Of a DNA stretch of 64,000 nt, positions 3,067 to 53,904 are shown piece by piece; position 1 is the stretch's first letter; every line of letters begins with the position of its first letter. The notes beneath the pieces were generated by a model, which did no database searches, had not been told where the DNA came from, and saw nothing but the letters and a program-made list of their open reading frames with translations. The DNA is from Amphiscolops sp. MND2022. Taxonomy: Eukaryota. The translations under genes and the position numbers were made by a program. The stretch is taken from assembly GCA_964187785.1 (NCBI GenBank), contig OZ076409.1, positions 64,232,001 through 64,296,000 of the forward strand. The letters run 5' to 3'.

Positions 3067-3296
3067 TAAGCGTGAGATCGCTGCCAGGTATGCGTGTGCT
3101 GACAGTGCGGCGGGGCAGGCAGTGAAAACATTTGATTTACTAACTATTAACTAAAATTGCACCGAAATTAATGCAGCACCAAGGTAAGGCAAAAATGTTT
3201 ATCATGAGTTTGTAGCAGGAATACGGCAAAAGAAGGCCTAGCTTCATTTGGGTTTGTGTGAGCCCTCGGGCTCACCTACGTATTGGCAGAGGTGCA

Positions 3297-7000: not shown

Positions 7001-7552
7001 TAATACCATGTGCGACGCATTGGCAGCTGGAGCACTGGCATAAGGTGCCATTTGAGCTGCAGGGGGCATCATGGCATGCACATTGGGCAGGTATGCTGCT
7101 TGACTCGTCAATTGCATTGATGGTGTCTGTGGCTGGATCACCAGATGTGCTGGTGGGAGAGGTTGCGGCATCGGCACGTTAACTATTGGGATCCGCAGCG
7201 TTGCTTCCTGCTCAATTGCTGTGAGCACGCTGGGACCTCGCACCTCTGAAGAGCGATCATTAGGGAACGGGTGGGTCAAATCGTAGCTGTCCCAAGTGCC
7301 GCTTTCACAGGTCATTGTACGCTTATAGCCAGCTACATCTGTGACTATAGAAACTGTCAAGCTAGGCAGTGTGGGCTGTGTCTCCAGTTGCGCCAAAAGG
7401 GCAGTGATCCCTGCAATGGCAGCTGGCGATATGCCATTGCGCAGCCTTTCTTCAATGAACTGCACTTGCCTCACACGTTGCGTTCGGGCAACGTCCTGAT
7501 TGGGTTGGGTCGAGGCAGGCATTGCTGCAGGGGCAGGGTGATGGTAAGCCAT
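4010..7552 (-). CDS. E1 accessory ORF2 in the env position, about 1,180 aa when repaired; disordered N-terminus, SGNH-like domain, hydrophobic segments
   Basis: ORFs 6680-7552 (290 aa) and 4010-6529 (839 aa) join through two in-frame stops and a 1-nt indel in a C run near 6575. ATG 7552 follows an acceptor-like TATTTTAG. Confidence 0.7.
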
Positions 7553-7558
7553 CCTGGT

Positions 7559-7580
7559 CTAAAATAGGTGCCTATTAGAT
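7559..7580 (-). promoter_or_regulatory. Putative splice acceptor for a subgenomic ORF2 mRNA
   Basis: Minus strand CTAATAGGCACCTATTTTAG|ACCAGGATG: branch-like CTAAT, pyrimidine run and AG 6 nt before the ATG. Confidence 0.5.
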
Positions 7581-7792
7581 CCTTGGTACTGATGTCATTT
7601 GGTGCATCGTTGAAACCGGTTCCATAAGGGAACTAGTCAGTGGAAAACATAATTGTAAATATCGAAAGGTTAATTAGGAGGGCGCTGAAGGCGTCCTTAT
7701 TTAACATAGATCTCAATAAAATTTAATGACAGAAAAGACGTACTCTAACAGAAATTAAAACCGAATTTACATGAGCTTTCGCTCAAGCAAGA

Positions 7793-9960
7793 TCAACTTG
7801 AGAGATGGCACTCAGGTGGCTTAACACCTATCTCTATGCTGAGTATAGACACGTACACGCGATTGTGTAGCACTACGTGAATGTTCGTGTCCACGAACAA
7901 ATCCACTAGTACCTTGTACAGGTTGGTCAGGGAGAATACTGGCCTTTCGGGCTCCAGTATCGGAAAATGGACTCAGGCAATACCCTTGTCCTCTAGCCAT
8001 GCCGTTAATTGTCGCATGCATAATAGGAAATCATCTGCTATTAGCGGGGCGCGCTGATTCGCACGGGTGATCAGCAAGTGTATGGTCTGGGTGGGTTTAG
8101 TGGTGATTGCAGGGGTCAGGGTCAGAATTTCTCCTACACGGGGGCGCAGTGAGAAAACTTGCTCCTTGCCGCATTCCCGCAACACGTAGCGCAGTGCTGC
8201 TGAGCTACTTTCTAAATCCGCCGGGCACGCCAGGGCTATATGCCCTTCGACTTGCAAAAAGTCAGTGGTGTCATAAGAGATGTATTCCACCATGTTCGGG
8301 CGTGGACTGCCGGGATACACTATTTCCCGACCCGGTCCATTATCAGGGGGCAAGCATACGCGTGGGGTGCGACCCTGTATGGCGGCTAAATCCTGCCACA
8401 CCGAGCGCGGCAACGCTTGGTTGTCCACACCTGCTCGGACCCACGTGTCCAGCGTGTTCAATGCTGCTCTCACTTTCAGGGTCTCCTCAAAATTGTGAAT
8501 CCATTCGTCATATAGACGAATGCGGGGGTAGTTGGTGAAGCACGTTATGATTAGCTCCAACCACCAGCGAAATTTTACTTTCCCACGATACCAGTCAATA
8601 AGGTGGAAGCACAAGATTAGGTGTTCCGGTGTGGAAGTTCTGTGGTTCCACTAACGCATCTACACGTGGTGCAGTCACTAACAGCCACCAGTGCGGAGCT
8701 GGACTATACACGCCACCTGGTTCTACCTCGACTCCGTATCGGTCCAACAGCAGGTCAGCAGTGATGCATCTGGCCATTTGCACTGGCTCCCGCTCAAAGT
8801 TGAACGGACCAAACACAATGTTAGGGGGCACTGGGGGTACCACGGTTGCCAGCGTGAATTCTAGGCCTTTGCCGTCACTTGTTCATTCCTTAATTCGAGG
8901 ACATGGCGCCTTCGCAACGCCCGGTACGCCGATTCGCTGCAAGATGGTTTCTGCTGAATAATTCTTGGTTCGCTCTAATCCAGCGAAGGTCTTTTCCGCT
9001 CGCACCACGATACGATGAACCAGTTCAGCATTGTGTCGTCCCTCCGGGGGAACTCCCCGGGCTCCAATGGGAACCTCCCGGTTCTCGTGCACGGCTAGCA
9101 CGCATACGCAGTCGCGCAAGCCACAGGTGCCGCATTTGTATCTGGGCTGCAGTTTCTGTCTCAATTGGTATCTATTTTGGGATCCCGTTTGGCTGTCTGA
9201 AATTGGCGCGTGGACCTTGGACGCTGCCTTTTCCGAAGGTTTACGTGGACGGGGTGCCCTTGTCGCACTTGTCTTTTTCCGAGGTCTCCCCCTCCCCCTT
9301 TTAACAGAAGGAGCCGTGTGTGGTTTGGGTAATGGTGGTGGGGCTTGGTCCGCTGAGGGTGTAGGCGGACGAGAAGTGGGGGCGCTGGTATCTTTGGCGT
9401 GATCGGGCCAAAGAGGGTAATTACTGAGGTAGTCGGTAAGAGAAGGATCGTCAGCAGCGGAGCAGAGGTACCCGAAGGGGATAGCTCCGGTGGATCGTCT
9501 GACGGTGATAACTGGGGTGAGGGTGAGCGCCTAGGCTCATGATCGGAGAATAACTGCGGAAGGCAGTCGATTATAGTTGTGTCTGACGGAAGAGCGGGCA
9601 CGGCGGGAGCTTCGATGATGTCCGCAGGTTGTGTCTGGACCAGTTGTGGGGAATTGGTAGGAGTGGGGAGCATCGCGTCCGTCGTTTCATCGTCGGTCTC
9701 AGACGTGGAATAATCGAAGTGTTGGTAATGCTGCCGGGTTCCTCCCGCGCGCAGCCTATTGCACAATCTAGTGTCCATCCAATGGCGTCGCCTAGAGGGT
9801 AGCGACACACCCGAGGCCTCTGAAAGTAATTGTTCTGAGTCATAGGAGGGCTGGGAGCAATCATCATCAATAGGTTCTACGGAGCGCTCGGGCTCAGGAT
9901 CCATTACCACGGCAATGTCAATGCTATCTAATGGGATGGCAGCGAATTCCAGGGGGCCTT
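7793..9960 (-). pseudogene. E1 integrase C-terminal extension: disordered region, AT-hook, CxxC-x4-CxC motif, macrodomain (TARG1/Poa1p-like)
   Basis: Fragments 9161-9910, 8883-9164, 8595-8843 and 7973-8614 plus read-through to 7793 join by three frameshifts and two TGA stops. KRGRGRPRKK lies at about 9273-9302. The macrodomain pattern ISYDTTD..HIALACPAD..VGEILTL..IHLLITR..GIA*VHFPI lies at about 7860-8290. Confidence 0.72.
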
Positions 9961-33753: not shown

Positions 33754-34037
33754 TGGCTGCTGGTACCATATCTTACTTCGGTAGTATTCCGAAAGGTGCC
33801 AACTTACAAAGGCAGAACTGCTCATTCGGCATCCACCCCGCGGAATTGGGGAAAAATATTTTGTTGTTCAAAAAATCTTTCTTCAATTTGTTTCACCTTT
33901 TTTTAGAGTTTTAGGAGACTATGAGGACCAGAAGGTTCCCCTTTTGCTATTTTCTCGATACGGTATCGAGCAGTTCTGCCTTTGTAAGTTGGCACCTTTC
34001 AGAATACTACCGAAGTAAGACATGGTACCAGCAGCCA
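33754..34037. repeat. 70-bp inverted repeat (33754-33823 and 33968-34037), 144-bp spacer
   Basis: The arms are reverse complements with 2 mismatches. Confidence 0.92.
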
Positions 34038-35276
34038 AGTGGTCAAGCAATGGTCGGCTTGAAGCTGTGGTTTCAAAGTGACTTGCTCAATGTCATAAAG
34101 GCCTGACTGCTCACCGTTACTCTTTGTTTTGCTTTTCTGCACAAAATGAATAATTTTTCTGTCATTGACCATACCACTCAGCTAGGGATGAAGGACTTGC
34201 TCAAGGCCCAACGATGATTAGTTGGGAGAGATTCGTACCTGATACCGTCCCAGTACAGGCCGAATGATCTAACCACTTTGTAATATTCCATCCTGTTTGC
34301 CTCATTCGGAAAATCAAATTTGAAACAAAGTTGTAAGAAAAAAGGTTTGTAAGGCTGAAAAAGTGTATTGAAAGGCTAAAAACAATTGCACACATTTCAA
34401 TTGTCTGAAAAGGATCAAATTCATACAACAAACAACCGAACCATCAATAAAGTTTCCATTTTGTCTTCCAAAAAACAGCACGCACCTCTAAAATGAAACG
34501 GTTTTCCTGTACCTTAAAAAAAACAAGACAACCAAAACAGTGAATTAGGCTGCAGCTTTTTTCAATTGTGCACTATGTTTCAATTGTTTGATGAATTTAT
34601 GAGAACAACATAAGAAAAACATAATCAAAAAGAAAGTGAAATGAGCCTAAGTTTTACTCTTCATAAAGTCATACTTGTACACTACTTTTCACTGATGCAT
34701 TACCGGTTTGAGTAGCAAATGTTATTGCTAATGCCTTTCAAATAGGTCTTCTTGGATCCGTTATTTTAACAAATACAAGCGGAAAATTATGTGAAGTGCT
34801 GTCGTGAAGTTTCAGAGTCTTGTTAGTCGTTTTTGTTAGACGGTCACATTTTTGTGCAAAGTAATTTTTATGGTATCTGGAAAACTTACCTAACTTTAGA
34901 TAACAAGCTGTTAAGGACACACTACATACAGTTAATAATATTGCAATTAAAATTAATTATCGATCGCCCACCACGATCACGTTTCCTTGAAACAGCACTG
35001 AAGTTGATTGTTAGTTTGCATTTCATAGCTTGATTGAAATTACAAAAATTAAAGAAAAGAACTGAACCTTTATTTGTAAGAAATATGTAACTTCAACTGC
35101 ATGTAAACAAAGCTAGCATTTACATGGTGGTTTCTTTCAATCTCTAATTTACCCAAAAATTTAGGGAACTGGAGAGACGAATTGAATATTGATGACAATG
35201 GATTTAAAAAAATTCTGTCGATATTAATATTACAGTCGAGTCCGGATAATTTCACCCGGAGATTGTCTGGGGCACC

Positions 35277-36953
35277 TGTCGCAGGCTCCCGCCTGCGATG
35301 GGAACTGGTATCAGGTTGCCCCTGATACCTGCAACAATTTACCCGTCCCCCCAGGAGTGCTGCCGATCTAAGTCGCAAAGACCATCAGTACTTGAAAACA
35401 ATTATTCATTGGACGATTTGAACTCATTATTAGCTCAAACTTTTATCTATGTACAATTACGGACCTTAAGTCCATTCTCCCTAGTAAGACTTATAATCGG
35501 AGTTAGACTCTCAATGTAGTATATTTGTGTGAAATCTAGTAATTTTGCTATCTTATGGATCTATCATATTCAATGCATGTATTTAGTCATGTAAACCAGT
35601 AGTCAATTATAGTGAATGTAATCAATTGCGTGCAATTAGAATTAACAAAGCAGCTATATAGTTGGAAGGAATCGCGTTCGAATTGTCCCCCGCGTTGGTC
35701 AGTTCGGACGCGTTGTCCGCCAAATTATTCAACCAATCAGCTGTGAGCACTAGTGCTTTCTTTCACTCATTCGCCGCCATTCACGTCTACACGTATTAGT
35801 GTGGACCACCAGTCCAAGTGCTATACTCTATTTACATTAGCATGTTATATAAACAAATAGAATTCTCTGGAGCGGTGTTATGTTGCTAATTAGACATAAA
35901 AGGCGTACCGCCATTTAGCCCCCCCCACATTAGCTTTCACTCCTTTTCGTAGAATTAAGCTATTTTTAGAGTGATGTCACTGTTCTAATAATATCCCCAA
36001 GGTGATTTTGCCCGCATTTGATGCTATTAATAGACCAAACCCTAGAAAACGTCACTATGACGTCAGGTCCAGTAATCTAGTTTTATCCCTGTGATGATCA
36101 TAATTTTGCGTGTCATGAGGCGCTGATTATAAATAGTGGGGACCCGAGGTTTCCAGGAACACAATCGACAATCTGTTTGACCGCGAATACACACACAATC
36201 CATTCCAAGTGAACTCTCAACTCTATTCAATCTTAACGCATAGTCAATTTGCCATTTCTTGCTACTCTACTTAACTATCAATCATTCACTTGTTTCCTCA
36301 TTCCTTTAATATACTGTAGAAGCTCTAATATACTCTTAGTTGAGCTTAAATCTCTTCAATGCCTTCTACCAGAAAACAAAGAGCTAAAGAGAGACGCTCT
36401 AGGCAAATAGACATAATGTCTGATGCTGAGAACTTAGATGTAATGCTTGGATCATATCCGAGAAATGACTTAGAAAATGATTTTGATAGAAACGATGAAA
36501 TGGACCTAGAGTCTAATAGGACAAGAGCTGACTTAGCACAAAATAGTGAGGATTTTAGGTCACTTTTGAACTCCAACAGTAGAGAGAACAGTGAATCAAC
36601 TGTTGAAACTATGAGGCTTGTTAACTCTGAGGTCACTAAGAAAATCGACGAACTGAGGAGAGAACTTAATTCTCAGTTAGTAGATGCTATAAACTCAGCG
36701 ATCACAGAAAAGGTATTGCCTGATATCAGAAATATGGTGACCGGCCAAAGCTCATTGTTTCGGGAAGAAGTGGACCACAGGTCCAGAGGACTAAACAGGA
36801 CCTCCGAAGAATTAGGTAGTAGAAACGCTTGGAAAAGCAATTCAAAGCCTACTTTGGCTTCCAGTAGTCGACGAGACTACTTCAGGAGAAACTCAGATGT
36901 TTCTCAGTTCAGTGATGATGATCACGAAGAAATGATGACCAATAATCATGACA
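35277..36953 (+). repeat. E2 5' LTR (1677 bp)
   Basis: TGTCGCAGG..CATGACA, near-identical to 49870-51548. Confidence 0.97.
36058..36134 (+). promoter_or_regulatory. E2 LTR promoter: CRE-like TGACGTCA and TATA box
   Basis: TGACGTCA at 36058-36065 and TATAAAT at 36128-36134. The same pair occurs in the E3 LTR. Confidence 0.55.
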
Positions 36954-38072
36954 TGGTGACAGGAGCCAAACCTACCCCTCGTACGGTTCCTGAATTCCTT
37001 ACTGGACGGCCCATGCATTCCCGAGAAGAAACACACAATTCCAATTCCCCACGAAATCAATCCTCAGAAAATGTCCCTCCCGTCCAAGAGACAAACGTCA
37101 ACGATGGCTCAGACCCCATTAGGCGTCTCGCAGATGTGCTGGTTGGAATGAACAGCAAATCATCAGCGCAGACACTGATGGTAAGACCCGTCACCACCAC
37201 CACACTGACGTTTGATGGCAAATCGGAGAAAATTGAACTCTTCGAAGATCTTTTCCATACTATGGTAAAGATGCAACCCGAAATGACGGAAACCATGAAA
37301 ATCAACCACTTCCACTCTCTGTTGAGGAAAAACGCCCTACAAACTTTCCGCAACATCAGTACCGCTAATAGGCAGACTCTGGAAGATGTACTGGCAGTCT
37401 TTCGACGCAAGTACGTCAAACCAGAATCTCAGGCAACAGCCAAACACAAATGGCACAAACTAGTGTTTGACCCAAATACTATGAAACTGCCTGATTTCCT
37501 TGAAGAATTAAATCAGGGTGCGGAAAAGGCATTTGGAGAACACGCCCAGGCCATGATGGACAGCCTATTGTACGCCAAATTGCCTCCAAAACTCAAACGG
37601 TCTGTCAATATGGCTAGGCTTGAAAATGCGTCGTATGAGGAAATAGTCACTCATCTAGAACGCGAGCTTGAACTTAACGGACTTGAGGGAGGTGACGACA
37701 TTCCAGTACCTACAATGTCCACTGCCCCCACAGCAACACGACCGGGAACTGGCCTCCTTTCATCGGGTATTGACCCCAATATCACTTTAATTATTGCAAA
37801 AAACCCGGCCATGTCAAGGAAGACTGCCGAAAACTCAAACGAAACGAGGAACAAAGGCGCAACGAAGGGCAGGATACTAAAAAGAATATCCCAAATGTCC
37901 AACTTGCGGCAAAACAAATCACCCGGCGGAACGTTGTTGGAAAGGCGCCGGAGCCCACCTCAAGCCCAAAAACCTCAAACTGGAGGACGCCAAACAGGAC
38001 GAAGCGCCCCCCGGACAAAATGAGACCAAGGACAAACAGTTCACCTCTATATTAAAAAACTCAAAAAACTAG
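36359..38072 (+). CDS. gag: E2 gag, starting inside the 5' LTR
   Basis: 554-aa ORF from ATG 36359 with capsid-like LTFDGKSEKIELFEDLF..LRKNALQTF. Two zinc knuckles (NYCKKPGHVKEDC, CPTCGKTNHPAERC) appear after 1-nt frameshifts near 37790 and 37880. Confidence 0.9.
36954..36967 (+). other. E2 primer-binding site (tRNA not assigned)
   Basis: TGGTGACAGGAGCC immediately after the LTR CA. The identical 14-mer follows the E3 LTR. Confidence 0.85.
38063..38069 (+). promoter_or_regulatory. Putative -1 ribosomal frameshift heptamer A AAA AAC
   Basis: Directly before the gag TAG, with pol in the -1 frame. The same arrangement occurs in E3 at 53895-53901. Confidence 0.7.
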
Positions 38073-41000
38073 ATTTGCCACGACTCCAATTTAATGAAAA
38101 ACTTAGAGTTAGACAATATATAATCTCTGACGCTGCTAATGTATTTTATATTGAATATTATTCTTCTTTAAAGGGAACCTCATCGGCTGACTGGCAGCAG
38201 CAAATGAGAATTACCCCTACTCAATTTTGCACTTCGGACCACAGGTCCGACAGACTTGACTTGACTACGGACAATATCCGACCTATTCCATCAATCCCTG
38301 ACTATAACCCCTATTACATCGATCCGGACTATGGCATTGCCCCTACTGGGATGTACAAATCTACAACCAACACGAATTGCATTTCTATGCCAACTTTAAC
38401 AAACAACAAGCCGAAATCGAACCTGACTGTCCTGTGGCAGACGGGGCTCTCAACAATATTCTGACTACGGCTCTGGTAGACCAGTGGCAATTGGTACCCA
38501 ATTCATTTGCTCTACCACCACCACAGGAGCCCGAAACAGAATTCTACACATTTGGACCACAAGTCTCTTTGGCGTTAGCCGTCGAGGCACGATTTGTCAA
38601 CACTCTGGTCACCAGAAATGGCGAACCAGATTATGTACCGCTGACAACCAACCTTGGACTGAAATATAAACGGCGTATGCTCTACTTTCCAATGGATTTT
38701 GGCGAACTTACATTAGATGGCCTTGTAGACACGGGAGCCCTATCTAGCGCGATCCCTGAAGCTGATCTACGTAAAATCCGATTATTAGCCCCTCAGTCAA
38801 TTGTCAAAGAGGGCCCAGCACCCAACTTCCAAATAATGGTAGCCAATGGGCAGCTGGAAACTCCAAAGAGCACCGTCGAACTGAAATTTGAGGTCGGCGA
38901 TATAGAATTTCACGAAATTTTTATTGTAATGGAGAAACTCACAAGCCCTTTGATTGGTCTTTCGTTCTTGCAACGAAACAACACCATATTGGACATGAGA
39001 CAGGGAGTCCTAAATTTCCCGTTCTTCTCCATGCAATTAAAGACGGCGGATCACAAGTACACCAACGTCATGGAGCCTATCTGTACGCAGGAGGACATAA
39101 TCATCCCTCCCAACGATAGACACCTAGCCACGTTAACTTCGCAGATGTACGACGATACCACCGTTACTGGTATATTACAACCAAGCAACGCCCTCACTGA
39201 GGATGGGGACATCATCTTTTGTGCGGCATTGGTCACATTGACCTCAGGTCAAGTTGAAATTCATCTGAATAACTTCACTGACCACCCTTATACTCTTAAG
39301 AGAGGTTCGCATATCGCTAATTTCTCTGTCATGACCCCAGGACAGATGAAGTACGTCAAACCTGTTGACCCGGTGACCACATGGCACCTTTTGCAGGACA
39401 ATCCTGAAAATGCTGCCTTTTATGTTAGCAGCTTGATTAAATCTTCAAAACCAGAAGATTTTCGTGAGAACTATTGGTTTCCTACCCCGGAAGACCCTGG
39501 GGATCCACAACACCATACGCCTATACAAAAGCGTATTCTGACTGAGCTCTTGACTTTACAAGAGCTAGAGAAGCTTAATCCTCAGGATGACCCTGAGTCC
39601 AGACGACAATTCTTGACCAACTTTGATTGGACTGACTCTATGCTGCAACCAGACGAAATTGTTCGCATTGAAAACTTGCTAGTCGAATTTCACGATATAT
39701 TCGCTAGACACCGATTCGACATAGGCATGAACGAGGATTTCAAGGTCAAATTGACCCCAAAAGATGATTCCCCGGCCTATAGTCAAAGTCTACCAACGCC
39801 TATTAACCTCAAGGAAGACATCCTTGTGGAATTGGCACTGTTACAACGATATGGGATTATAACAACTCTCCCATTTTCCAAATACGCTAGCCCAATCTTT
39901 GCCCAAAAGAAACCTAACGGCAAATTGAGACTGCAAGTCGATCTCCGTAAGATTAACAACCTAATTTCGGATGATTATATCAACAATAATCACCCCGTCA
40001 GTACACTGACCGATGCTGCCCAACATATGGCTGGCAAAAGGCTATTTTGCAAGTTGGACTGCTCGCAAGCATACCACTGCTTGCAAATGGCGGACCAACG
40101 GTCGATTGAAATGTTGGCGTTCAATTTCGCCAGCAGGACATTTGCTTACCGCAGGTTGGCACAGGGACTCAGCCGTGCTTTATCAGCCTTTTCATGCTTT
40201 ATGCGAGAATATCTCGACAAAGTAATCAAAGCCGACCAATGTGCACAATATGTCGACGATATTGGCATTGCTGCCAATGATTCCGAACAGCTCATAAAGA
40301 ACCTGCGGGCCACTTTCCAATGCATCCGCGAGGCAGGATTGAAGCTCACAATGCACAAATGTCATTTTGGTGCGACAGAAATTGACTTTTTGGGTCGAAC
40401 GATCACGCCAGTCGGCGTACGTCCACAGCGACCACGAGTCCAAAATTTCCTTGAAAATACGAAATTTCCGAAATCAAAGAAAGCATTGCAGCGATACCTG
40501 GGATTTCTTAACTATTATCGCAACTATATTCCCAGGCTTTCAGAAAAATTAACACCGTTCTTTAAATTATTAAAGAATGACGAAAAAGTCCTGGTAACAC
40601 CGGACCTATTGGAGAAATTTACCGATATCAACAAAGCACTTGACCGCTGTTGTGAATTAGCACTTAAACAGCCACTACCGAATAAACAATTAGCTCTCAT
40701 GACGGACGCCAGCTTTATGGCCGCTGGATACGCAGTCCTAATTGAAGACGATCCGCAAGAGAAATACACTTCAACGAGAAAAGCGTTTGCTCCGGTAGCC
40801 TACGGGTCAAAGACCTTTAGTCCCGCACAATTGAAAATGTCCATTTATGCAAAAGAATTCTTAGCCATATTCTTTGCGTTCAAGGAATTTGGACATATCT
40901 TTTGGGGGACGCCAAAACCGGTAATTATACTGACCGATAACAAATCCGTCACGCGTTTTTTTCAAACAAAGATAATACCACCAACGTTGTGGAACGCGTG

Positions 41001-43106
41001 TGATTACGTCATTCAATTCAACTTCACAATAGCACACATTCCCGGTAAAAACAACACAGCTGCTGATTATTTATCGCGTTTAGAAGTTTCACCAAAAGAG
41101 AAATTAATCCTTCGCATTAGAGAAGATATTCCCACTACGCCAATTGAACTTCATGCCCAATCCGCGGGAATTAACGAAGAAGAACAAATCTTCTATACTG
41201 ACGATGATGATGAGACGGAAGAACAAATCTGGCAAAGGAAGAAAGAATCACGAGACAACCCTTCCAACCAATTGCCGGATATTTCTTTTGAAAAATTTAC
41301 CACTCATCACAGCAATTACCAAGAATTATCCATTTGTCAAAAATTAGCCAATATCAACACTGTGGCCATAGAGCAAAACAACGACGTCATTCTACAACAA
41401 CCTAAACTCAAAATCCAAAAAGAAGAATATTCTGAAACGATCTTGATACAAGACACAAGATATCAGCACTAGCTACGTCAGTTAGACCGGATGTCCATCC
41501 AAGATGAAATCATCACCAGACAGTATTATGACGAAACAGGAAACGTCAAATACAATCAAGTGCTCTTACCAAAACATCTGGTAAATGAATTGCTCGAATC
41601 CCTCCACGGAAAGGCAAATAGACACCGGGCATTGCAAAAATGTTACAAGAAATTCGTTCCAAATATTATTACCCCGGAATAGCGAAACTAGTCCGCAAGA
41701 GGGTTAATGGATGTGAAATTTGCATCAAAGATAAAAGAATTCAAAACGAGTTAATAACTCCTGAGCTCCTTAATTTGCCAGAATGGACCTTGGGTCCAGA
41801 AGACGCAATGCAAATAGACCTCTTGCCGAACCTCCCGCCGAGCGGAGGCTACGAAAATATTATTACTGCCATGGACGTTTTTTCGCGTTACCTTTTTGCT
41901 TACCCAGTTACTGACGCCTCAGCTGCAAACACTGCCAAGGTCATTATCGACATCATGACCAAGCACACTTATTTGCCGACGACTTTGATTACCGATAAAG
42001 GATCAGCCTTCACATCAAAGTTAGTAGCTGAAATAGCGCAAATTCTGGGCATTCAAATTAAATGTGCGACGACAAAACACCCTCAGACCATAGGGAAACT
42101 GGAAAAAACACATGCCAGTCTCAAGACTAATCTCAAAATGGCCTCAGGGGAGTACAGACGTCAGTGGCACAAGTACTTGCCGTTAGCAGTCCTAAATTAC
42201 AACACGTCTTACCACTCGACGTTGGGCTGTGAGCCTTCAAGGATATTTCATGGCCGTATACCATACAACATCCTAGACCACAATTTGGGGCTTAATCCAA
42301 ACCCGCAGGTCCTTCCGACCACGGACTTTGCTGAGGAAGTTCAACGCAGATCGCAGATTTTGGTCGATGCAACAAAGAAAAACATCATGCAGTCTTATTT
42401 GAAGTACAAAGACTATTACGACCGAAAGGCCAAAGCCGCACCTTTGAAAATCAATGATTATTGCTTTATTTTGCAACCTATAGCTGACCATCAAGGATCC
42501 AAAATCCCTTTTCGAGAATTTCGTTGGATCGACCCTTACATTATTGAGAAAGTTTTACCCAACGACAATTATATAGTGCGCAAGCTCAGTTCCAACAAGA
42601 CGCAAATTTTACATAGAATACGTCTTCGAAAATATGAGCCTAATACTGACTTGCAGGACGATCGCCCTGAAGGGAATTTGCAGCCTGACGATGAAATTGT
42701 CGTTCCTCAAGACGATCTCTACGTAATCACGTGGGAAACGAACTTTGGAGACTTGCAGTCTGGTCGACGTAATGCGACCTACGAGCAATCAACCGAACGA
42801 GCAGAAAATACGAACGATGCAGCTGCCGATTTTGAGCAGCCAGACCAAATACTGACCGATGTGGATCTGAGGTCCACTAGACGTGATGCGACGGAGGAAA
42901 CTCTTCCTGAGCGAACTGCAACCGATTCTGAAGATGAAACAATTCCCGGTGATGAAACATCATCAGGGGGGAGCGATACTATCGTGCCCGAAGTATCAAA
43001 AAGCGAAAATGACGAAAGGATTCAAGACAATGAAAGCCCTAGGGGAGGGAAATATAACCTTCGCCCAAATCCTACCCCCAATTACTCAGGAGAATACAGA
43101 TACTAG
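38063..43106 (+). CDS. pol: E2 pol: PR, dUTPase-like spacer, RT, RNase H, integrase (frameshifts near 38400 and 41630)
   Basis: LVDTGALSS; KLDCSQAY and QYVDDIGI; LMTDASF, KEFLA and TDNKS; QIDLL..TDKGSAF..GKLEKTH; KIPFREFRWIDPY. Confidence 0.96.
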
Positions 43107-43300
43107 TCAGAACATTCAATTGTTACATCCCATCTTTTCTCTTTGCCCATGAGGACATGTATTTTTACTGGGACCGCTCTGACTTTATTTTTTTATGCTG
43201 CAATTAATAGACTGTCGACAAAGCGACTTAGAGGAAGAACAAAGAAATAAATACAAATGCAGTTTATAGTTTAAAGTTTACATATGTACTGTGCGTACAA

Positions 43301-46300
43301 TCAGTCTCTGCTGCTACATTGGCGCAGGCTCTTAGCAGACTGGGCCACTTCGGAATCCGACAAAAGGTGCGTCGGACGCACATTCTTCTTCGAGTACTGT
43401 AAGGTACTGGGGGACTGCTGGACGATAACGGAACTGGAAGTACCCGCCTTGCTGGCTTTGCTCTGAAGTCTACGATCAGGATCCAACTTCGACAGAATCT
43501 CCGTCCTCCCGAAATTATCCAAACCCGACCATGGGTCATACGTGTCGCCAAGCGCGGTGCGACCGAAAGTGGACTCCATTTCGAGGAATTCGGAGATTGA
43601 GGCATCGCTTGTCACTGACTCGACTGAATTGGCCACTTGGCTGAAGTATGATTGTACCGGCAGTACAATGTCCACTAGCTTGCTGGTGGGATCCTCCGTG
43701 TTGACTGAGCTAAATCTGACTGTTGGAAGACTTCGAAAGGGCTCGTCAATGCACAGGCAGGCCAACCTGAAGCAACTCAGCAGCAAAGGACGTGTGGGCA
43801 AGGTCGTTTGCTCCATTAGGAAGTCGATTGTGTCCTTGATCAATAAAGTTGGCTGATCAAACTCCGCGAATTTGACGCGCAGTTCGTCGACGAAGGACAA
43901 GTACTCTTCCTGCGCTGGAGCCTCTTGTTCCTGGGAGAAATACCCACGGAGACGGAAGATGGTAAATAGCTGACTGAAACACTTTGTGGCCAATGAGAGA
44001 GGCAGCTTTAGGAGGATTTCCAAGTCAAAGCTAGCTAAGCCTTGGGCAATGTTCGTGGTAAAGTTAAAGTGACCACGCGTCTCCTTGAATAAGTGCGTCA
44101 CATAACTTCTCGCCAAACGTCCAAACTCCTCCTTGGCTTTCTCCTTCAATTCGTCGATTGACGTCTTCTCTCCCTTCTGTTCGTGCTGGTCAATCTCAGC
44201 TTTCAGCTTGCAAGCTTGGTGAAGCTTCACTCCAAACTTAGTCCTGTTGAGGAACACTGTGACTTTGAGGGCAGGGGCAGTTGTCGTGTCCAGATCCAGA
44301 ATGCTCGCTATGTCCTCCTCGACAGGCAAAGCAGTAGGAAGAACAACGCGCTTGCCCAACTTGCGGAGGTAGAGACAAAGCTGACGAAAAGAGTAGAAGG
44401 CCCTGTCACGTCGGCCACTGAGACTGAGGGAGAAATTGGTGGTATCTGAAACAGTAAACAAGTCATGAGGACGACCTACGCCATGAAGACCTACGGTCCA
44501 CAGAAGCAACGCCAACTAAAAGGGATCCAAGTTGGAACAGTCAAGCTTAGATTGGAAATTTAAAGAAGTCTCAGCGCAGTTCAAGTCAAATGATACCTAT
44601 AGGGTTACTGCGAAGCAATGTGAAGACTAAAGCACAAGAAAACTTAAAGTACTAACAGTCACGGACGAGCTTTCCAAAGAACTCTAGTTTGCAAGGGAAG
44701 AAATCATCGTGAATGATGGAGCGCTCAAAGTTCTGTGGCTGAAAGAAAACAGATGTTATTGAGATTTGCTCTACCAGTGACCACGAGGACAGCAGTCGCA
44801 ACTCGACCTACCTGATTACGGACTCCTTGCATTTGCTGCTGTGGTGAATGGTCAGAGAGATAGTTGATAACAGCCTTCCAGTTAGCCATCAACTCCTGGC
44901 ACAATTTCGGGACTGTCGACACGTCGAGCTTGCAAGTCTTTATGTCCTAAACGAAAACCCTATTTTACACCAAAACAAGTTTTATGCAATACACGGAGAA
45001 TAGACCGAGAGTCTTACGTTTGTCAATTCAGGGGTAAAGAGGGTCCATTCCATCTCGAGGCTTCCACTCAAGCAAACAACCAGATATTGCAGTACCGAGA
45101 AGAAGTCGATGCGCCCGAACACGGAGAAACTGTCCTTGTGCATCAACTTCTTGATTGCAATCTCGTCGAAGATGGTCGGACGCTGTACCCCATGCTTGGT
45201 GAGTGGTGACCGATCTAATAACTGCACTAGACCATGTGTAGCGCCGGAGCAACACACCAGATCAGCTTCAGTGGAGATCGCAGCTAGGAGGGTAGTCACA
45301 AGGTTTACCTCAGCCGACGTCCGTCCACATGTCCTACCGGTCCGTCGTAGGTAGACACGACACAATCTATCACCCTTCCAGAACCTGACGTGGAGCAGAA
45401 GGAAAACCCCTTGAGGTTCGAACTCCACAGCAAATTGTCCAGAGGTCATGATATCGTTGCCGATATTTGGGACGATCTGAGTGAACAGATGATGGAACAA
45501 CACCTTAAAAACAACTTTGGATTAGACCATACGAACACAACTGTCAACCCAGGCCTACAGTTCAAAACCTGAACAACAACTCTTGGAGTCCAGTCAATTC
45601 TATACAATACGGTGATGGGACTAGAAGTCATTTAGACATGAAGGGACTACTTACCGAGAGTCTTGTCGTGCTCCAATCGATGTCGCTGAAAATGGCCTGG
45701 TGGTTCACGGCCGCGCCGACTTGCTGCCAGAGACTTCGAAGGACCTGAATATCTCCAGACAGAGGCAAGAAACGTCCTAGTACGGAGATCTGCATTTTGG
45801 CGCGATTCTGAGGGGAAGGAGCCATGTAGTCTGCACCTGCCATCGCCTCGTCGTAGAGCGGCAACTTCTCCCCGATGTCCACCAGCTCGCTATTGATGAA
45901 AAGCGGCAACTCCAGTTGGAGCTGATAGTTAGAGAGCACTTGGCCGTTTCGTCCTCTGACTTGATATCTACGCCGTTTGGTGAGGGGATCTTCAATGGTG
46001 AGGTACTCGTACCTCCAGCGCTGGTCTTTGCGCAAGTGTCGTTCAGTTGCGAAATGTCGCAAGATTTCCTTCGGGCCTTTAGCTCGTATCGACACGTTGC
46101 ACTTGCAAATCTGGCAGTAGATCTTATGCTTATTCCACTGGGGTCGACTGGCCCCGACACGAACGTTCTGGTCCACGGCATGGACTCAAAGTGCTTCTCC
46201 TTCATGACATGGTCTCGGCCCATCCGTCTTCTAGGTCGCGCTGGACCTCGGGCTCTTGTTCGGGCTGAAGTGTGCTTCCTGGAGTGGCGTTGTTCAGTGG

Positions 46301-47677
46301 TGGCCCCATGTCTGATAGTAGCTAGAGTTTGCATTCCAGGACTAAAGGCTACGGGTGACTGAGGATCGGACTCGAAGTCCACTTGCCTCCTGTTACCAGC
46401 GGTTGGAGGGGCAGGCATCGCCACACTTGACTGGAAGTCGGGTTGGGACTCCGCCTCACTAGTCATCCCTGGACTAGCGTCGCCTCTTCGAGTGTCATAG
46501 GTGATGACAGAATCGCTACCAATATCTGTGTCAGTATCTGGACCTGACGTCGAGGCAGCACGCCTTCGAGGAGTTGCTTTCACGGGACTGCTCAAATTCA
46601 GTCTGCTTGCCCGCTCTACCACGCTGTTCAGCATCTCAAAGGATGCTCGGGCGCTCTCGTCTGCCACAATCCTGAGGATGCTGGTAATTTGATCTTGATT
46701 GAGAGCAATGACAGGATGCCCAGGATCAAGGCAGATAGGGTTTACTTCAGTGAAGCACTGTTTGATTATGACCCTGCTGGTACCTGACAGGGAGGAGGTC
46801 CTGTACGAGGTGGTAAATCAGGAATGCTAGAATCATGGCTGGATTCATCGCGGCAAGGAATATCACGGACCTTTGTGGGGCTATAAAGTGCTTGGCCCAA
46901 AGTAGACCGAACCATGGATCCGGTGTCGGTCTCCATCCCAAAGCAGGAATATTCATCGGTGTGGTACCGGTAGTCCATTGGTCCACGGTTGACTTGTGGC
47001 TCACCAGAGCCAGAGCCTTCAGCGCCTCGGCCTTCTCCAGGCGCAACTAGTTCACGAGAGCCAGACTGTACTTGGGCAGGTGTCTGTTCTGTAAACCCGA
47101 CGTTCTCAAAGTGGACTTGCCTTTCTGCACTGGTACCATCAGCTCCGAAGTCAGGTTTGGATGTGCTGAGGGCTTGCTCATCTATTTCGCGAAAGGTCAA
47201 AGGACTCTGTTCCACGGTAGCAGCATTGTTTGGTTCTACTGATGAATCAGTCTTGTCCAGGAAAACAACTATAGGGATGCTTTCTGACGGCTGGACTTCA
47301 GGGATCATCTCGTTCAGTGCGGGAGTTACAGCAACTAACTCGCTCACACTCTGCTTTACTTCAGCAGGAATCTCATCTGCGGGACTAGCAGGAATCTCAT
47401 CTGCGGGACCAGCAGGATCACGTTCAGCGCTCTCCAGCAATTCAGCTGTGCGTTTGATGTACGCATCACAGCTCTCCGAATCAGTGTTAGACGACAGTTC
47501 GATTACAGACCTCTTGTCTGCTGCGACTTCTGTGACTTCAGGCTCTGGAGCCTGTTCAAATGATGGCAGATCTACTTCCATCTCTTTAGCAACATTTTGC
47601 TGCGGTTGGCCGTCCATTTCTTTGCCTAAACGGAAAGAAATAAATTTTCGCGATCCACTTCCGCTAAAGAAATCCAT
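43301..47677 (-). CDS. E2 antisense 5-exon gene; BED-like zinc finger plus probable inactive hAT-transposase fold
   Basis: Exons 47677-45655 (two 1-nt frameshifts), 45503-45018, 44946-44812, 44738-44657 and 44445-43301. The GT-AG introns give a continuous frame, and all four positions are shared with E3. Confidence 0.85.
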
Positions 47678-49145
47678 CTTATCGCGTTTGAAAGACTTTC
47701 GAAAGCAAGTTCATTATTTGTTCATACCTATGATTGAATATTTCACGATGGAGGAAGTGAAAATTAGTCAATGGGAAGCCCTGATCAAGCTCAAAATTGA
47801 CAAAATTATCTAAAAGAACCAACCTGATGTTTATCCAACTGGAAGACAGAATTCGAAAAGCGTGATGTAGCTGACTGGAGGTATATGGCCTGCCTGAACT
47901 GTGAATTTGGCTCGGGGAAGAAGCAGGTGAAGGAAAATTGTCAGCTGAAACGAACTGTTGTGAGGGCACCCAATGTCAATTAGATCACTAGTCCAATTAA
48001 AGGAGATTAAAGAAATGGACAGACTGAGTTGAGAGAGCTGCCGAGGAGTTGATTCTAGAGATGTAGTATGCACCTGCACTGTGCCAAGGATAGGAGATAA
48101 ATCTGCAAGATGGGGAATTCTGAGCTGGGGATGTATGCTCAACTTGTTCAGCTGGTCGATCAAAGGACGATTAGACCAGTGGTCCAAGAAACGAAATTAC
48201 AAGCAAATATTGCTAAAGGGACACTCCAGCAAGAGTATTCCAAGGAAACTTGACGATCTAATCTGGAACTGTGGAATAGAATTAGAGTGACGAATTCAAA
48301 ATGTAACAATGATGTAGTAATCAATTCAAAAGATTGCAATGAAGACTGTGGAAATTAGAAGACTGGTTTACTATGCTTTATGACAATTCGACTACATGTA
48401 TTACTTACCTATTCCTACTTCTTACCATCATACTTGACTGTCAAGACAGATAATTACTTGATCAATTCTAGCATTAAATTTATCTACATCAAAGGACGTC
48501 GTGGCTACATGCAATTAACCAACCATTATTATTGTTATTATCTCTTTTAACTACCTATGCATCATGACCTTTGGTGTTACGGAAACTGCCAGTGATGTAC
48601 ACTTTTGGTCATTTCTTTCACACTTCCTTGTTCCTTTAGTTAGAGTTACCATCGTTACCATTATTTGATTTCATTAATATGATCTATTTTATTATTTTCA
48701 TTCAAAATTCATTCAGAATTTTCAGTTATTTATCAAAGCGCTCTGATTGGTCAGTTGGTATCAGCTAGCCGCGGAGACCGCCGGTCTTTGATGACACTCC
48801 ACTGATGTTGATGAGCGGTGGTAAACAATCTCACCGCTCGTTAACACCTCTTCAGCAGTTACTATAACCACTTGAGACTGGACTCAAGGGCTTGTCAACT
48901 TTACGAGCCGCTCAATATCAAAATGATATTAAGAAAGAAATCTACTAAATAAGGAAATGTTTTGAATATGAGGGAAGCGGCGGGGAAATTTTCCCTAACT
49001 GAATTTCCCGCGAATTTTCAACCCTATGACCTAAGGTCGGCTGGTCTATCGCAGCCATTCTTCTGAATCTCAACTTACAAATCAGCAGCTCACACTTATT
49101 CTCAAAATAGCTAAGAAAATCTTGCTGAAAAGATTTCGATCAGAA

Positions 49146-49964
49146 ATGTCTCTGCAATTTGCCGTTGACGACTTGATTAGCCCTTTGGTCAGTTTGTCTT
49201 ACCTGTCCTCAGAGGAGGAAGACATGGAAGTGGATGATCCACAACCAGCCGTAGACGAGGAGGGGTACGACAGCGACATTGAAGTCCTGGCTTGCTTCAG
49301 CGAGTCACATTCTGTGAAGCCTATGGGTGTGGCTGGACGCACAATGACAACTGAAATCTACATCGAGGATGACGATCTAACACTGGTTGAAGAACTCTAC
49401 GGGCGAGCATGCAAGTTGGACTCAGAGCCAACCGATGATCTAGTCAACTTAGTACTGGGCAATGGACCCTCCAAGCATAGTATGATCCCTGTAGGCGAGA
49501 AACCGATAGCCAGGTGTGCTCAAATGCAACCAATTCCCGACACCCCACAGTCTCCACCTGCCCATGAGAGAGGCCCCACCTCCACCTTCGACAACACCCA
49601 GTGGGCTAACTTTCAAACTGCCTACGAGCCCGAGCATGCCCACATAACGGGGATAGCTGTAAGCGCAAGCGGTGTCTGCGGAACCTCAAATTTCGTGGCC
49701 AGAGGAGACTGCGTGGTGTGTGGGAAAGACTTTGGGTCTATCAAAGAGGAAGTGACATTAGACTACCTGGAGCGGACTCACTTATCCGGCGAACCTTATC
49801 TAACACGAGTAAGGAGGAGGAATGAGGCAGGCATGGCCGCCGGCTCATTTCTTCTCGTACCGGGGGGAGTGTCGCAGGCTCCCGCCTGCGATGGGAACTG
49901 GTATCAGGTTGCCCCTGATACCTGCAACAATTTACCCGTCCCCCCAGGAGTGCTGCCGATCTAA
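49146..49964 (+). CDS. E2 3' accessory ORF (272 aa from ATG), acidic with CxxC motif, reading through the PPT into the 3' LTR
   Basis: Intact ORF with CVVCGKDF. The last ~31 codons lie in the LTR, and the motif SQAxACDGNxY is conserved at the start of the E3 LTR. Confidence 0.75.
   Translation: MSLQFAVDDLISPLVSLSYLSSEEEDMEVDDPQPAVDEEGYDSDIEVLACFSESHSVKPMGVAGRTMTTEIYIEDDDLTLVEELYGRACKLDSEPTDDLVNLVLGNGPSKHSMIPVGEKPIARCAQMQPIPDTPQSPPAHERGPTSTFDNTQWANFQTAYEPEHAHITGIAVSASGVCGTSNFVARGDCVVCGKDFGSIKEEVTLDYLERTHLSGEPYLTRVRRRNEAGMAAGSFLLVPGGVSQAPACDGNWYQVAPDTCNNLPVPPGVLPI
49862..49869 (+). other. E2 polypurine tract
   Basis: GGGGGGAG directly before the 3' LTR TG. Confidence 0.85.
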
Positions 49965-51548
49965 GTCGCAAAGACCATCAGTACTTGAAAACAATTATTC
50001 ATTGGGCGATTTGAACTCATTATTAGCTCAAACTTTTATCTATGTACAATTACGGACCTTAAGTCCATTCTCCCTAGTAAGACTTATAATCGGAGTTAGA
50101 CTCTCAATGTAGTATATTTGTGTGAAATCTAGTAATTTTGCTATCTTATGGATCTATCATATTCAATGCATGTATTTAGTCATGTAAACCAGTAGTCAAT
50201 TATAGTGAATGTAATCAATTGCGTGCAATTAGAATTAACAAAGCAGCTATATAGTTGGAAGGAATCGCGTTCGAATTGTCCCCCGCGTTGGTCAGTTCGG
50301 ACGCGTTGTCCGCCAAATTATTCAACCAATCAGCTGTGAGCACTAGTGCTTTCTTTCACTCATTCGCCGCCATTCACGTCTACACGTATTAGTGTGGACC
50401 ACCAGTCCAAGTGCTATACTCTATTTACATTAGCATGTTATATAAACAAATAGAATTCTCTGGAGCGGTGTTATGTTGCTAATTAGACATAAAAGGCGTA
50501 CCGCCATTTAGCCCCCCCCACATTAGCTTTCACTCCTTTTCGTAGAATTAAGCTATTTTTAGAGTGATGTCACTGTTCTAATAATATCCCCAAGGTGATT
50601 TTGCCCGCATTTGATGCTATTAATAGACCAAACCCTAGAAAACGTCACTATGACGTCAGGTCCAGTAATCTAATTTTATCCCTGTGATGATCATAATTTT
50701 GCGTGTCATGAGGCGCTGATTATAAATAGTGGGGACCCGAGGTTTCCAGGAACACAATCGACAATCTGTTTGACCGCGAATATACACACACAATCCATTC
50801 CAAGTGAACTCTCAACTCTATTCAATCTTGACGCATAGTCAATTTGCCATTTCTTGCTACTCTACTTAACTATCAATCATTCACTTGTTTCCTCATTCCT
50901 TTAATATACTGTAGAAGCTCTAATATACTCTTAGTTGAGCTTAAATCTCTTCAATGCCTTCTACCAGAAAACAAAGAGCTAAAGAGAGACGCTCTAGGCA
51001 AATAGACATAATGTCTGATGCTGAGAACTTAGATGTAATGCTTGGATCATATCCGAGAAATGACTTAGAAAATGATTTTGATAGAAACGATGAAATGGAC
51101 CTAGAGTCTAATAGGACAAGAGCTGACTTAGCACAAAATAGTGAGGATTTTAGGTCACTTTTGAACTCCAACAGTAGAGAGAACAGTGAATCAACTGTTG
51201 AAACTATGAGGCTTGTTAACTCTGAGGTCACTAAGAAAATCGACGAACTGAGGAGAGAACTTAATTCTCAGTTAGTAGATGCTATAAACTCAGCGATCAC
51301 AGAAAAGGTATTGCCTGATATCAGAAATATGGTGACCGGCCAAAACTCAGTGTTTCGGGAAGAAGTGGACCACAGGTCCAGAGGACTAAACAGGACCTCC
51401 GAAGAATTAGGTAGTAGAAACGCTTGGAAAAGCAATTCAAAGCCTACTTTGGCTTCCAGTAGTCGACGAGACTACTTCAGGAGAAACTCAGATGTTTCTC
51501 AGTTCAGTGATGATGATCACGAAGAAATGATGACCAATAATCATGACA
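49870..51548 (+). repeat. E2 3' LTR (1679 bp), including a second copy of the Gag N-terminal ORF (50954-51616)
   Basis: Near-identical to the 5' LTR and followed by the TSD GCACC. Confidence 0.97.
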
Positions 51549-51556
51549 GCACCGGC

Positions 51557-52768
51557 TGTCCCAGGCGGCCGCCTGCGATGGGAATGTCTACGCTATCCCA
51601 CAAAATGCAATCATAACAAACACAAAACTGTCAAGCTTGCCTCTTCTCTAAGAAGAAGGTTCTTGCAAACCAAAACTATGAAAACTGTTGAGTCATGTAA
51701 CTTCTGTATAATGCCATTCATTGCCTCATCGAGACTGTAAAATACAAGTAAAATGGTTAATAATCATTAGTACTCAGTGTCATTTATGATGTCCTTATGA
51801 CATCAGTGGACAATACCAATACTTTCATTAGTGCAGTCTATATTGACTAATACTGCTCCCATGCGTGCATGAAAATAACGTTTACATTACGTACGCATGT
51901 GCGAAGTGAAGAAATAGCGATAACCCTAAATCAGAGCTATGTAAACACGGTGTTACTATATATGGATAGATGACCTGACGTCACATCCACTTTGATGATG
52001 CTATAAATAGAATTACTTGTAGTGTGTCATGCAAGGTGCTATTTTTAGAAGGTGACTTGACCTAAATTTGAGAGTCATGTAACTATGAGTATATATGGTA
52101 TGATCCCTGAGAGGGGACACAATCCTATTAGATTGCATTAAAAGTCACAACCAGATCTTGAGTATCAATTCAATTTACCAGTTATCATGTTTTCCTCTGA
52201 GAATGCCATCGACGAGGAGCAAAAAGGCAAAAACGAGAAGGTTGAGAGAAGCAGACATAATGTCGGATCTAGAGGACATGGATGTTATGCTGGGTTGCGG
52301 TGAGTATAATCCTTTTGAAAGAGAGATAGATCAAATAACCGGTTTCTCAAACACGCTAGATAGCGAAGAATCAAGGGAAAATATCTCAGCAAGAGGATGC
52401 TCTTCCCAAGAGAATGAAATCAGAAACATGCCTGAAAACAGGGATGATAATAATTTAGCGAGACATATAGACGTTCTAACGAACGAGGTTAATCTAACAA
52501 TTTCGAGAGAAATGGGTAGTTTGTTGAATGTAGTTAATTCCCAAATAGAGATCGCCATTAGCATGGCTTTATCTGAAAGGGTAAATCCCCAAATTCAAAA
52601 CGTCATTGAGAATGTGCTGGCTAGACAGTCTGAGCGTGTCGCGACAATGACCAGAAGACCTCACAACTCAGGTATTTGATGCGCAGAACTGTGACGGAGA
52701 TAAAGCGAGTAACAGGGATTTTTAATCTCATCAAAATTTAACAGAACTCCATGAGGAGAGTCCTTACA
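51557..52768 (+). repeat. E3 5' LTR (inferred, about 1.2 kb)
   Basis: Left end inferred by similarity to the E2 LTR start; right end is TTACA before TGGTGACAGGAGCC. TGACGTCA at 51976 and TATAAAT at 52002. No second copy in the window. Confidence 0.75.
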
Positions 52769-53904
52769 TGGTGACAGGAGCCTTCGGACCACAAACATCA
52801 ATTCCCGAATTCTTAACTGGACGAATCCACACACAACCGACACTCAGCCGCCCGGCCTCAATCAATAACATAGACTTGAAAGCTACTATTCCAGATCCGC
52901 AAAACACACCAGCAACACCTCAAGATCCCATAAAAGGACTGGCTGAGGTATCGGTCAATCTTCAGAATAAACCCGAAAAAATTCCTTTACCATTAGACCT
53001 GTCAACACGACTACAATGACATTTGATGGTAAAAGCGAAAAATTTGAGTTGTTTGAAGACCTATTACATACAACGATAAAAATGCAACCCGAAATGACGG
53101 AACAAATGAAAATCAATCACTTCCACCCTCTATTGAGGAAAAATGCTCTGCAAACGTTCCGCAATAATAATTCGTCTAACAGACAAACTCTTGAAGATGT
53201 GCTGGTAATTTTTCGCAGAACATACAACAAACTTGAATCTCAGGCTACAGCAAAACACAAATGGCATCGCCTAACTTTTGATCCTAACACCATGAAGCTA
53301 CCGGATTTTCTGGATGAACTAAACCAAGGCGCTGAGAAGGCGTTTGGCGAAAATGCGATAAGCATGATAGACAGCCTACTATATGCCAAGCTTCCGACTA
53401 AACTCAAGAGATCTGTTAACATGGCAAGATTGAAAAATTGATCATATAAACAGATAGTGGCACATTTGGAACGCGAACTTGAACTGAATGCGTTAGAGGT
53501 ATCAGATCATCTACCTATCGTCACCATTACATCTACCCAGACAAAAAATAGGGGTAATCTCCTCTCATCAGGCATCGATCCGAAAACCAATTGCACCTAC
53601 TGCAAGAAGGAAGGACACAATTACAAAGTTTGCCCCAAGTTGAAAGCTAAAAGAGAAAGGGAGGCCAAAGATGGAATGAAACCAAAAACAATCTACCCTA
53701 AACGCCCCACATGTCAAACAACCAACCATCCGGAAGAAAGAATGTTGGAAAGGAGCTGACGCACACCTCAAATCAAAGAGAAACAAAAATGACGACAACA
53801 CTACAACGGAAGACACAAACAAAAAAGAAGAATCCTCAGATAACACCCGTACCACATCAAAAGCACCAGCCTCCATACTTAAAAACCTGAATCCAAAAAA
53901 CTAA
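52203..53904 (+). pseudogene. gag: E3 gag, also starting within the LTR
   Basis: MPSTRSKKAK..DIMSDLEDMDVMLG aligns with E2 MPSTRKQRAK..DIMSDAENLDVMLG. Zinc knuckle CTYCKKEGHNYKVC. Fragmented. Confidence 0.88.

Follow-up and report, generated by a model that had tools for sequence, protein, structure and literature searches.

The window, the whole 64,000-nt stretch that was analysed, contains a 16.3-kb LTR retrotransposon (E2, 35277-51548) and, near the 3' end of this element, an open reading frame (ORF) of 272 codons on the plus strand, from an ATG at 49146 to a TAA at 49964. The ORF reads through the polypurine tract (PPT) into U3: the purine run is translated as P-G-G-V, the 3' LTR opens with a TG at 49870 that supplies the final two bases of the Val codon, and the stop codon ends 95 nt into the LTR, leaving only 31 of the 272 residues to be encoded by U3. 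The first-pass annotation had described an acidic 272-aa product with a CVVC motif, crossing the PPT as PGG and ending 95 nt inside the 3' LTR, and all of this was confirmed (pI 4.28, D+E = 43 versus K+R = 16, CVVC at residues 189-192). Among 500 dinucleotide-matched simulations of 47701-51548, none produced an ATG-started ORF of at least 272 aa; with the composition of the ORF itself, 2 of 500 did.

Table 1. Features of E2 and of the adjoining end of E3 (positions in the window)
Feature	Position	Strand	Basis or remark
5' LTR of E2, 1677 bp, with an untranslatable copy of the U3 tail	35277..36953	+	LTR comparison
Within the 5' LTR of E2: TGACGTCA, TATA, gag start	36058, 36128, 36359		
PBS of E2	from 36954	+	adjoins 5' LTR
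gag and pol of E2 (protease, weak dUTPase-like, RT, RNase H, integrase)	36359..43106	+	Pfam
Antisense accessory gene, several ORFs, likely spliced, zinc-finger-like exon	43301..47710	-	diverges from U3-crossing ORF
Intergenic region between the divergent genes, likely internal promoter region	47747..49011	.	cis-motifs common with E3 and L001
In-frame basic amphipathic KIAKK-type peptide, likely translated (non-AUG start or upstream exon)	49104..49145	+	codon comparison versus L001
Accessory ORF, 272 aa, crosses PPT and ends in U3	49146..49964	+	ORF, homologues
First acidic patch SSEEED, CK2-type site; parallel SIM-like core here in deep-branching relatives	49206..49223	+	
Anti-parallel SUMO-interacting-like (SIM-like) motif DSDIEVL, residues 42-48	49269..49289	+	motif scan
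Proline-directed kinase-type motif [ST]PxSP, residues 133-137	49542..49556	+	25/27 members
C-terminal domain: CxxC, predicted two-helix hairpin, junction peptide with Q244, C248, D249	49710..49904	+	
Polypurine tract within coding sequence	49862..49869	+	PRG/PGG there in 76/105 relatives
3' LTR of E2, 1679 bp; first 95 nt encode the protein tail	49870..51548	+	
Homologous 30-codon U3 tail, start of E3 5' LTR	51559..51651	+	profile match E 2e-9

The carrier element and its neighbour

E2 was recognised as an LTR retrotransposon by its two TG...CA LTRs, a 5-bp target-site duplication (35272-35276 and 51549-51553), a PBS and a PPT. The LTRs (1677 bp at the 5' end, 1679 bp at the 3' end) are separated by no more than 5 substitutions and a single 2-nt indel. 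Pfam placed protease, a weak dUTPase-like stretch, RT, RNase H and integrase in the order typical of Ty3/gypsy elements, and the solved reverse transcriptases nearest to that of E2 were of foamy type and Ty3 (E 1e-27 to 1e-21). E2 is a young Ty3/gypsy element, yet a damaged copy, because its pol is interrupted between 41472 and 41622.

A related and more decayed element, E3, adjoins it, E2 having inserted 3 bp from its 5' end (51549-51557), which hints at a target preference common to both. The RT-RNase H regions of the two elements are 81% identical, and the pol clusters of this very abundant lineage comprise up to 1547 members. Between the LTRs of E2 and E3 there is almost no common sequence beyond a few short words; the earlier statement that they cannot be aligned stood for the LTRs overall, but not for the gag start, which lies inside both and aligns weakly. 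The E3 LTR starts at 51557, 8 bp beyond that of E2, and translation in the same frame yields 30 codons followed by a stop, so the open stretch announced as similar in length to that of E2 is in fact exactly equal to it. Gag begins inside the LTR in E2 (36359-36966, about 198 codons of it in the LTR) as in E3 (52202-52782), and its frame runs through the LTR end and the PBS in both; judged from these frames, both LTR junctions of the lineage are therefore coding. The Gag start presumably recalls invertebrate (acoel-type) gypsy proteins. A perfect TGACGTCA was kept 26-70 nt before TATAAATAG in the otherwise dissimilar LTRs of the two elements (36058, 50651, 51976).

Elsewhere in the window, a minus-strand LTR element (941-9530) carries long extra ORFs of up to 877 aa after pol, in the sense of gag-pol; two of them were scanned without a Pfam match, and none resembles the extra genes of E2. 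Within the same element lies a tandem duplication of 2356 bp (758-5472, 99.2% identical), real or an assembly artefact. An inverted repeat at 33754-34037, with 70-nt arms that are 97% complementary and 144 nt apart, looks like the remnant of a small DNA transposon.

The gene on the opposite strand, between pol and the U3-crossing ORF, has a counterpart in E3 (59.0-62.4 kb, minus strand) with 29-47% identity in tblastn (best E 1e-43), and its zinc-finger-like exon ends at a GTAAGT donor common to both elements. No match to it was obtained in Pfam, PDB or Atlas; by eye only, it has the look of a hAT transposase. The 1.4-kb gap that separates it from the U3-crossing ORF shares with E3 a 12-mer at 47747 and a 13-mer at 47779 (0.27 and 0.03 words under the null). 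The 10-mer CCACTTGAGA, found post hoc (null rate 1.7%), is present at 48868 in E2, at 63974 in E3 and at position 68 of L001, the locus of a relative whose DNA was available. A TGATTGG-type box (48744) and TTTCCCGC (49004) in E2 also lie 5' of the L001 gene, that is, at two loci. The motifs of the gap would be candidate sites for NF-Y, NK2, E2F and ETS factors. The simplest reading of this sequence is an internal, possibly two-way promoter, for which Grande gene23, with an internal promoter of its own, offers a precedent (PMC7264820). The alternative would be an mRNA spliced from the 5' LTR, by analogy with the rotifer ORF3s as far as these are described in the available text of PMC5408684.

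The reading frame of the ORF is already open from 49035. Over 11 codons 5' of the ATG (49104-49136), a block picked for its similarity, comparison with L001 gave pS 0.77 and pN 0.08, and the basic KIAKK-type peptide of this region recurs in five relatives that were called with longer starts (P0003, P0010, P0147, P0156 and P0177). From this coding signal and the shared peptide, the true start of the gene probably lies 5' of the ATG at 49146 and would use a non-AUG codon or a splice. In L001 (377-460) a pyrimidine-rich stretch that ends in AG lies before the peptide and could act as a splice acceptor; it has no clear same-phase counterpart in E2.

Protein family and selection on its gene

A word-index search returned 51 family clusters among 1053 candidates, with 33-96% identity, and in 37 of these the match spans 88% of the query or more; a profile search extended the family to 535 clusters (50% level) at E<=1e-3, the best 150 of which are 71-455 aa long. 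The junction pattern was matched by 105 of 210 proteins, many of the others being fragments. Among these 105, PRG or PGG stands at the PPT position in 76, and the protein ends 28-35 residues past it in 91 (near-identical sister copies counted). When CxxC, junction and tail were required together, 104 of 261 proteins passed, and the distance from CxxC to the junction was exactly 55 residues in 101 of the 104; the E2 copy is two residues shorter than these, in the second helix near residue 225. Across the family an end of the type P-x-x-L-P-x is retained about 30 codons into U3. In L001, 33% identical, purine run and TG fall on the codons that they occupy in E2. Full genes with DNA context were those of E2 and L001, the overlap with PPT and U3 being deduced from the peptide in the other members.

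A full homologue of the E3-type protein had been predicted, and at the protein level it was found: P0082, a full member of 275 aa, has a tail that shares 21 of 30 residues with the peptide of the E3 LTR, and P0174 (128 aa) shares 22 of 30. The gene of E3 itself lies beyond the window. Between the E2 protein and the E3-like P0082 the identity is 28%.

The C-terminal domains of E2 and L001 are identical at 42, 54 and 34% of first, second and third codon positions, and over 50 internal codons dS was about 3.0 against a dN of 0.57, which answered the call for a dN/dS comparison. The first 13 codons of U3 gave pN/pS values of 0.33 (E2/E3), 0.18 (L001/E3) and 0.59 (E2/L001), and the first 11 U3 codons of E2 and E3 differ by 4 synonymous and 2 non-synonymous changes. 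These values show purifying selection on the protein, both outside and inside U3. The synonymous divergence of the U3 codons between E2 and L001 is low too (pS 0.38), and E2, E3 and L001, the three copies with DNA, agree exactly in several codons at the junction; the low pS means that DNA signals constrain these bases as well. Conservation of the att site alone, raised beforehand as an explanation, is insufficient, because synonymous changes dominate, also within U3. About 240 residues 5' of the PPT show family-wide conservation, and neither these nor an end about 30 codons into U3 can be explained by DNA signals. With the family, the retained junction and tail and the excess of synonymous changes, we consider it practically certain that the U3-crossing ORF encodes a real protein, as had been proposed, and that this protein belongs to a large family without a name.

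Domains and motifs of the protein

No match of weight for the U3-crossing protein was found in Pfam, NCBIfam or PDB, and in a Pfam scan of 83 members no family occurred in more than 2 of the 83 (best E 0.004). AlphaFold2 left the N-terminal half unfolded (pLDDT <50). On a natural sister copy, P0058, it produced a two-helix hairpin after the CxxC with a pLDDT of 89-97, the rest being at 36-80 and the U3 tail of middling confidence. The predicted architecture is thus an acidic disordered N-terminal half followed by a small CxxC/helical-hairpin C-terminal domain, for which fold searches with the partial model returned generic hairpins only. Among 51 diverse members, Q244, C248 and D249, all encoded by U3, are the sole invariant residues, and three cysteines only are conserved in at least 90%; in the model, the CxxC and the invariant U3-coded cysteine may bind zinc. 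A hydropathy scan revealed no membrane segment (highest 19-residue value 0.74-1.52 in 6 members, 1.25 in P0001). Neither a clear basic nuclear signal within the ATG-started ORF nor an evident DNA-binding domain in the U3-crossing protein was detected.

The N-terminal half retains three short motifs. They were counted in 27 members of less than 70% identity, drawn from 88 full-length ones; because the patterns followed inspection of the alignment and these members are related, the counts overstate independence. SS[DEG][DES] occurs in 26 of the 27 (shuffle mean 3.3) and [ST]PxSP in 25 (mean 0.94, maximum 5). In 24 members a hydrophobic core of SIM-like type stands next to an acidic run, against a shuffle mean of 1.15, and when D, E and S were held fixed the mean rose to 1.5 and the maximum to 8 in 2000 shuffles; the strict pattern is lacking in 3 of the 27. 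A hydrophobic core beside an acidic or CK2-site run in a disordered region, as seen here, is a feature of SIM proteins, and the net charge of the first 110 residues is -13 to -23 in most members. Acidic-plus-hydrophobic stretches are also typical of activation domains and autophagy-type motifs. In a tree of the C-terminal domain, deep members carry the SIM-like core at the first acidic patch (four rows of this group owe their label to a looser match), and the branch that includes E2, with a support of 97/97, has it at the second. This shift looks like motif turnover with the function kept. According to the available text of PMC12751080, the SIM is a loose motif, CK2-enhanced and acidic-flanked SIMs as well as viral SIM proteins have been described, and DSEVEIVTV of RNF111 fits the anti-parallel pattern; the DSDIEVL of the E2 protein is nearly identical to it.

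Possible roles of the protein

From these motifs, we rather favour the view that the protein is a SUMO-binding nuclear regulator. That it acts as a counter-silencer or LTR activator is a more tentative step, towards which we are slightly sceptical. Taken as a whole, a conserved accessory gene with an internal promoter, the nuclear SUMO-binding product of which counters the silencing of the LTR, is a reading that we regard as finely balanced. A short mRNA would start in the 1.4-kb gap and end in the 3' LTR. CK2-type phosphorylation of the acidic patches would strengthen SUMO binding, and the [ST]PxSP site would couple activity to proline-directed kinases. The protein would then dock on, or titrate, chromatin silencing complexes marked by SUMO, so that the LTR promoter would stay active; the product of the antisense zinc-finger gene is a candidate partner for finding the protein's own element. 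The excerpted sources provide background for such a role: from flies to mammals, the repression of transposons depends on SUMO (PMC9406493), and the SIM-like motifs of HSV-1 ICP0 undo SUMO-dependent repression (PMC3174244). The fast divergence of the U3-crossing protein, at 28% identity as against 81% for RT-RNase H, would fit a host-facing protein; relaxed selection on accessory proteins can likewise speed divergence, to go by the accessible part of PMC13547354. In a wider version, which we think doubtful, an env-less Ty3/gypsy lineage would have arrived on its own at a complex-retrovirus layout with both LTR junctions coding; it would use a two-way internal promoter, and the spliced antisense zinc-finger gene and the nef-positioned SUMO-binding protein would together lift SUMO-dependent (piRNA/SetDB1-type) silencing.

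The same SIM-like motif counts could serve a factor that rides with the pre-integration complex and uses SUMO to anchor it in heterochromatin or at related elements. E2 did insert 3 bp from the related E3, in a window packed with retroelement remains, but a single case is anecdotal, no connection of the protein with Gag or integrase was seen, and no long fused form was found either in a weak search among proteins of 798-2275 residues or in the best 150 of the 535 profile matches (at most 455 aa); we hold such an integration-targeting or particle-associated role to be unlikely. A direct transactivator similar to Tas, with the acidic half as activation domain and the C-terminal domain binding the LTR or the internal promoter, likewise seems improbable to us. 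The strongly negative charge of the N-terminal 110 residues, an arginine-rich second helix and TGACGTCA just 5' of the TATA in the LTRs of both E2 and E3 would agree with it, as would the position and the likely internal promoter, which recall foamy tas/bet as presented in the available text of PMC6950176. However, the fold searches gave no known DNA-binding fold, the overall pI is 4.3, the two LTRs have almost no sequence in common beyond the short words, and the SIM-like pattern needs no such role.

A slim chance is left to a self-limiting factor, by negative regulation or copy-number control, or to a manipulator of the host cell cycle favouring transposition in dividing cells. The available text of PMC6950176 credits foamy Bet with the ability to dampen the internal promoter, but the very abundance of the present lineage, with its large pol clusters, speaks against self-limitation. 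For a cell-cycle role one could cite the conserved [ST]PxSP, the upstream peptide with its RxL-like word, and the TTTCCCGC and CCAAT-type boxes upstream in E2 and L001, presumably CDK, cyclin, E2F and NF-Y sites; the DNA motifs come from two loci only, though, and the RxL-like word does not hold in P0010, P0147 and P0177 having it in loose form only. We give very little credence to a passenger ORF without functional protein, in which only the PPT, the att site and DNA signals are conserved, or to an Env-like or captured host gene. The junction codons shared by E2, E3 and L001 would suit the former, which is nevertheless largely refuted by full-length open frames at 23-96% identity, by the synonymous excess in and outside U3, by the fixed domain spacing and by the conserved position of the stop. 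A cellular relative might be present among the 385 profile matches beyond the best 150 of 535; the absence of a signal or membrane segment contradicts an Env-like protein, and the Pfam result, with families in at most 2 of 83 members and a best E of 0.004, both proposals.

Extra genes are common in LTR retrotransposons, and a mechanism is available for almost none of them. New here are the SIM-like motifs, the conserved [ST]PxSP, the domain of CxxC and hairpin, the coding signal before the ATG and the cis-motifs facing the antisense gene. The SIM-like motif changed its place and yet persisted across deep divergence, and the pathway in question is one by which transposons are known to be silenced. 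Should counter-silencing be the function, a retrotransposon would fight SUMO-dependent silencing with a protein of its own, as herpesviruses do, and a PPT/U3 overlap of the nef/bet type would have arisen again outside retroviruses. If the two genes lift silencing together, this would be an anti-silencing system of a new kind encoded by an LTR retrotransposon. The family also supplies a marker peptide with which the 3' ends of this very abundant lineage can be annotated.

Comparison with known systems

Within the literature searched, of which coverage was incomplete, we found no description of the U3-crossing family or of any Ty3/gypsy ORF that crosses the PPT. The frames of nef and of MMTV sag overlap the 3' PPT and/or U3. 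The layout in E2 is like that of lentiviral nef, the ORF overlapping both PPT and U3, and a small, partly disordered, host-facing protein would be a further likeness to nef and sag. Lentiviral Nef has an N-terminal Met-Gly myristoylation site, whereas the ATG-started members begin with MS/MA/MN-LQF or similar (their true start being uncertain) and lack a Met-Gly start; no Nef profile appeared among the Pfam matches of 83 members, and none was listed in the fold searches. MMTV Sag, a type II membrane protein coded in U3, was rejected as a counterpart, given the lack of a membrane segment and the 31 of 272 residues from U3. The nef/sag-like layout is convergent, because the carrier is an env-less Ty3/gypsy element, and the initial view of an analogy in position only was borne out, no sequence or fold link having been found.

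An Env or env-like ORF3 was also rejected, with neither signal peptide nor transmembrane anchor in the hydropathy scan, and no homology to fusion glycoproteins was seen in Pfam, in PDB sequences or in fold searches with the partial model. A RING domain has eight metal ligands. With three cysteines conserved in at least 90% of 51 members and no RING profile, a RING-type STUbL of the RNF4/ICP0 type was discarded. Retand TRP28 and the bdelloid GDSL or DEDDy proteins were set aside for want of a Pfam match.

Extra ORFs after pol are on record in plants, fungi and rotifers (PMC7264820, PMC11963269, PMC5408684 and PMC6431247, each in the text available). The plant env-like genes of Athila and Bagy2, Grande gene23 and Retand TRP28 resemble the present case as extra post-pol genes kept across copies, with roles unknown, and gene23 is antisense with a nuclear product (PMC7264820; for the others also PMC11963269, in excerpt). 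In the accessible parts of these two papers the plant ORFs are described between pol and the LTR, whereas the U3-crossing gene contains the PPT and ends in U3; moreover, its protein has no transmembrane segment, and it is paired with a divergent antisense gene that is likely spliced. The bdelloid Vesta, Juno and TelKA and the planarian Burro share with E2 the dUTPase-like domain between protease and RT of an invertebrate Ty3/gypsy element, and non-Env extra ORFs as well; Burro has SUMO-like and ubiquitin-pathway domains. Their ORF3s encode Env, GDSL esterase, DEDDy nuclease, coiled-coil or membrane proteins, none of which was matched in E2, and a crossing of the PPT is not described in the text available from these sources (PMC5408684, PMC6431247).

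Foamy tas/bet come close in arrangement, with accessory genes at the 3' end, an internal promoter and a bel2/bet end adjoining non-coding U3 (PMC6950176, available text), but homology was not found, and in E2 internal promoter and transactivation are only inferred. No similarity to the plant VANC anti-silencing factors was seen in the Pfam scans; the likeness that we propose, by analogy with the accessible account in PMC13547354, would lie in the cancelling of silencing. With HSV-1 ICP0, the proposed likeness would be that of a mobile-element protein engaging SUMO-dependent repression (PMC3174244 and PMC12751080, as far as their available text goes).
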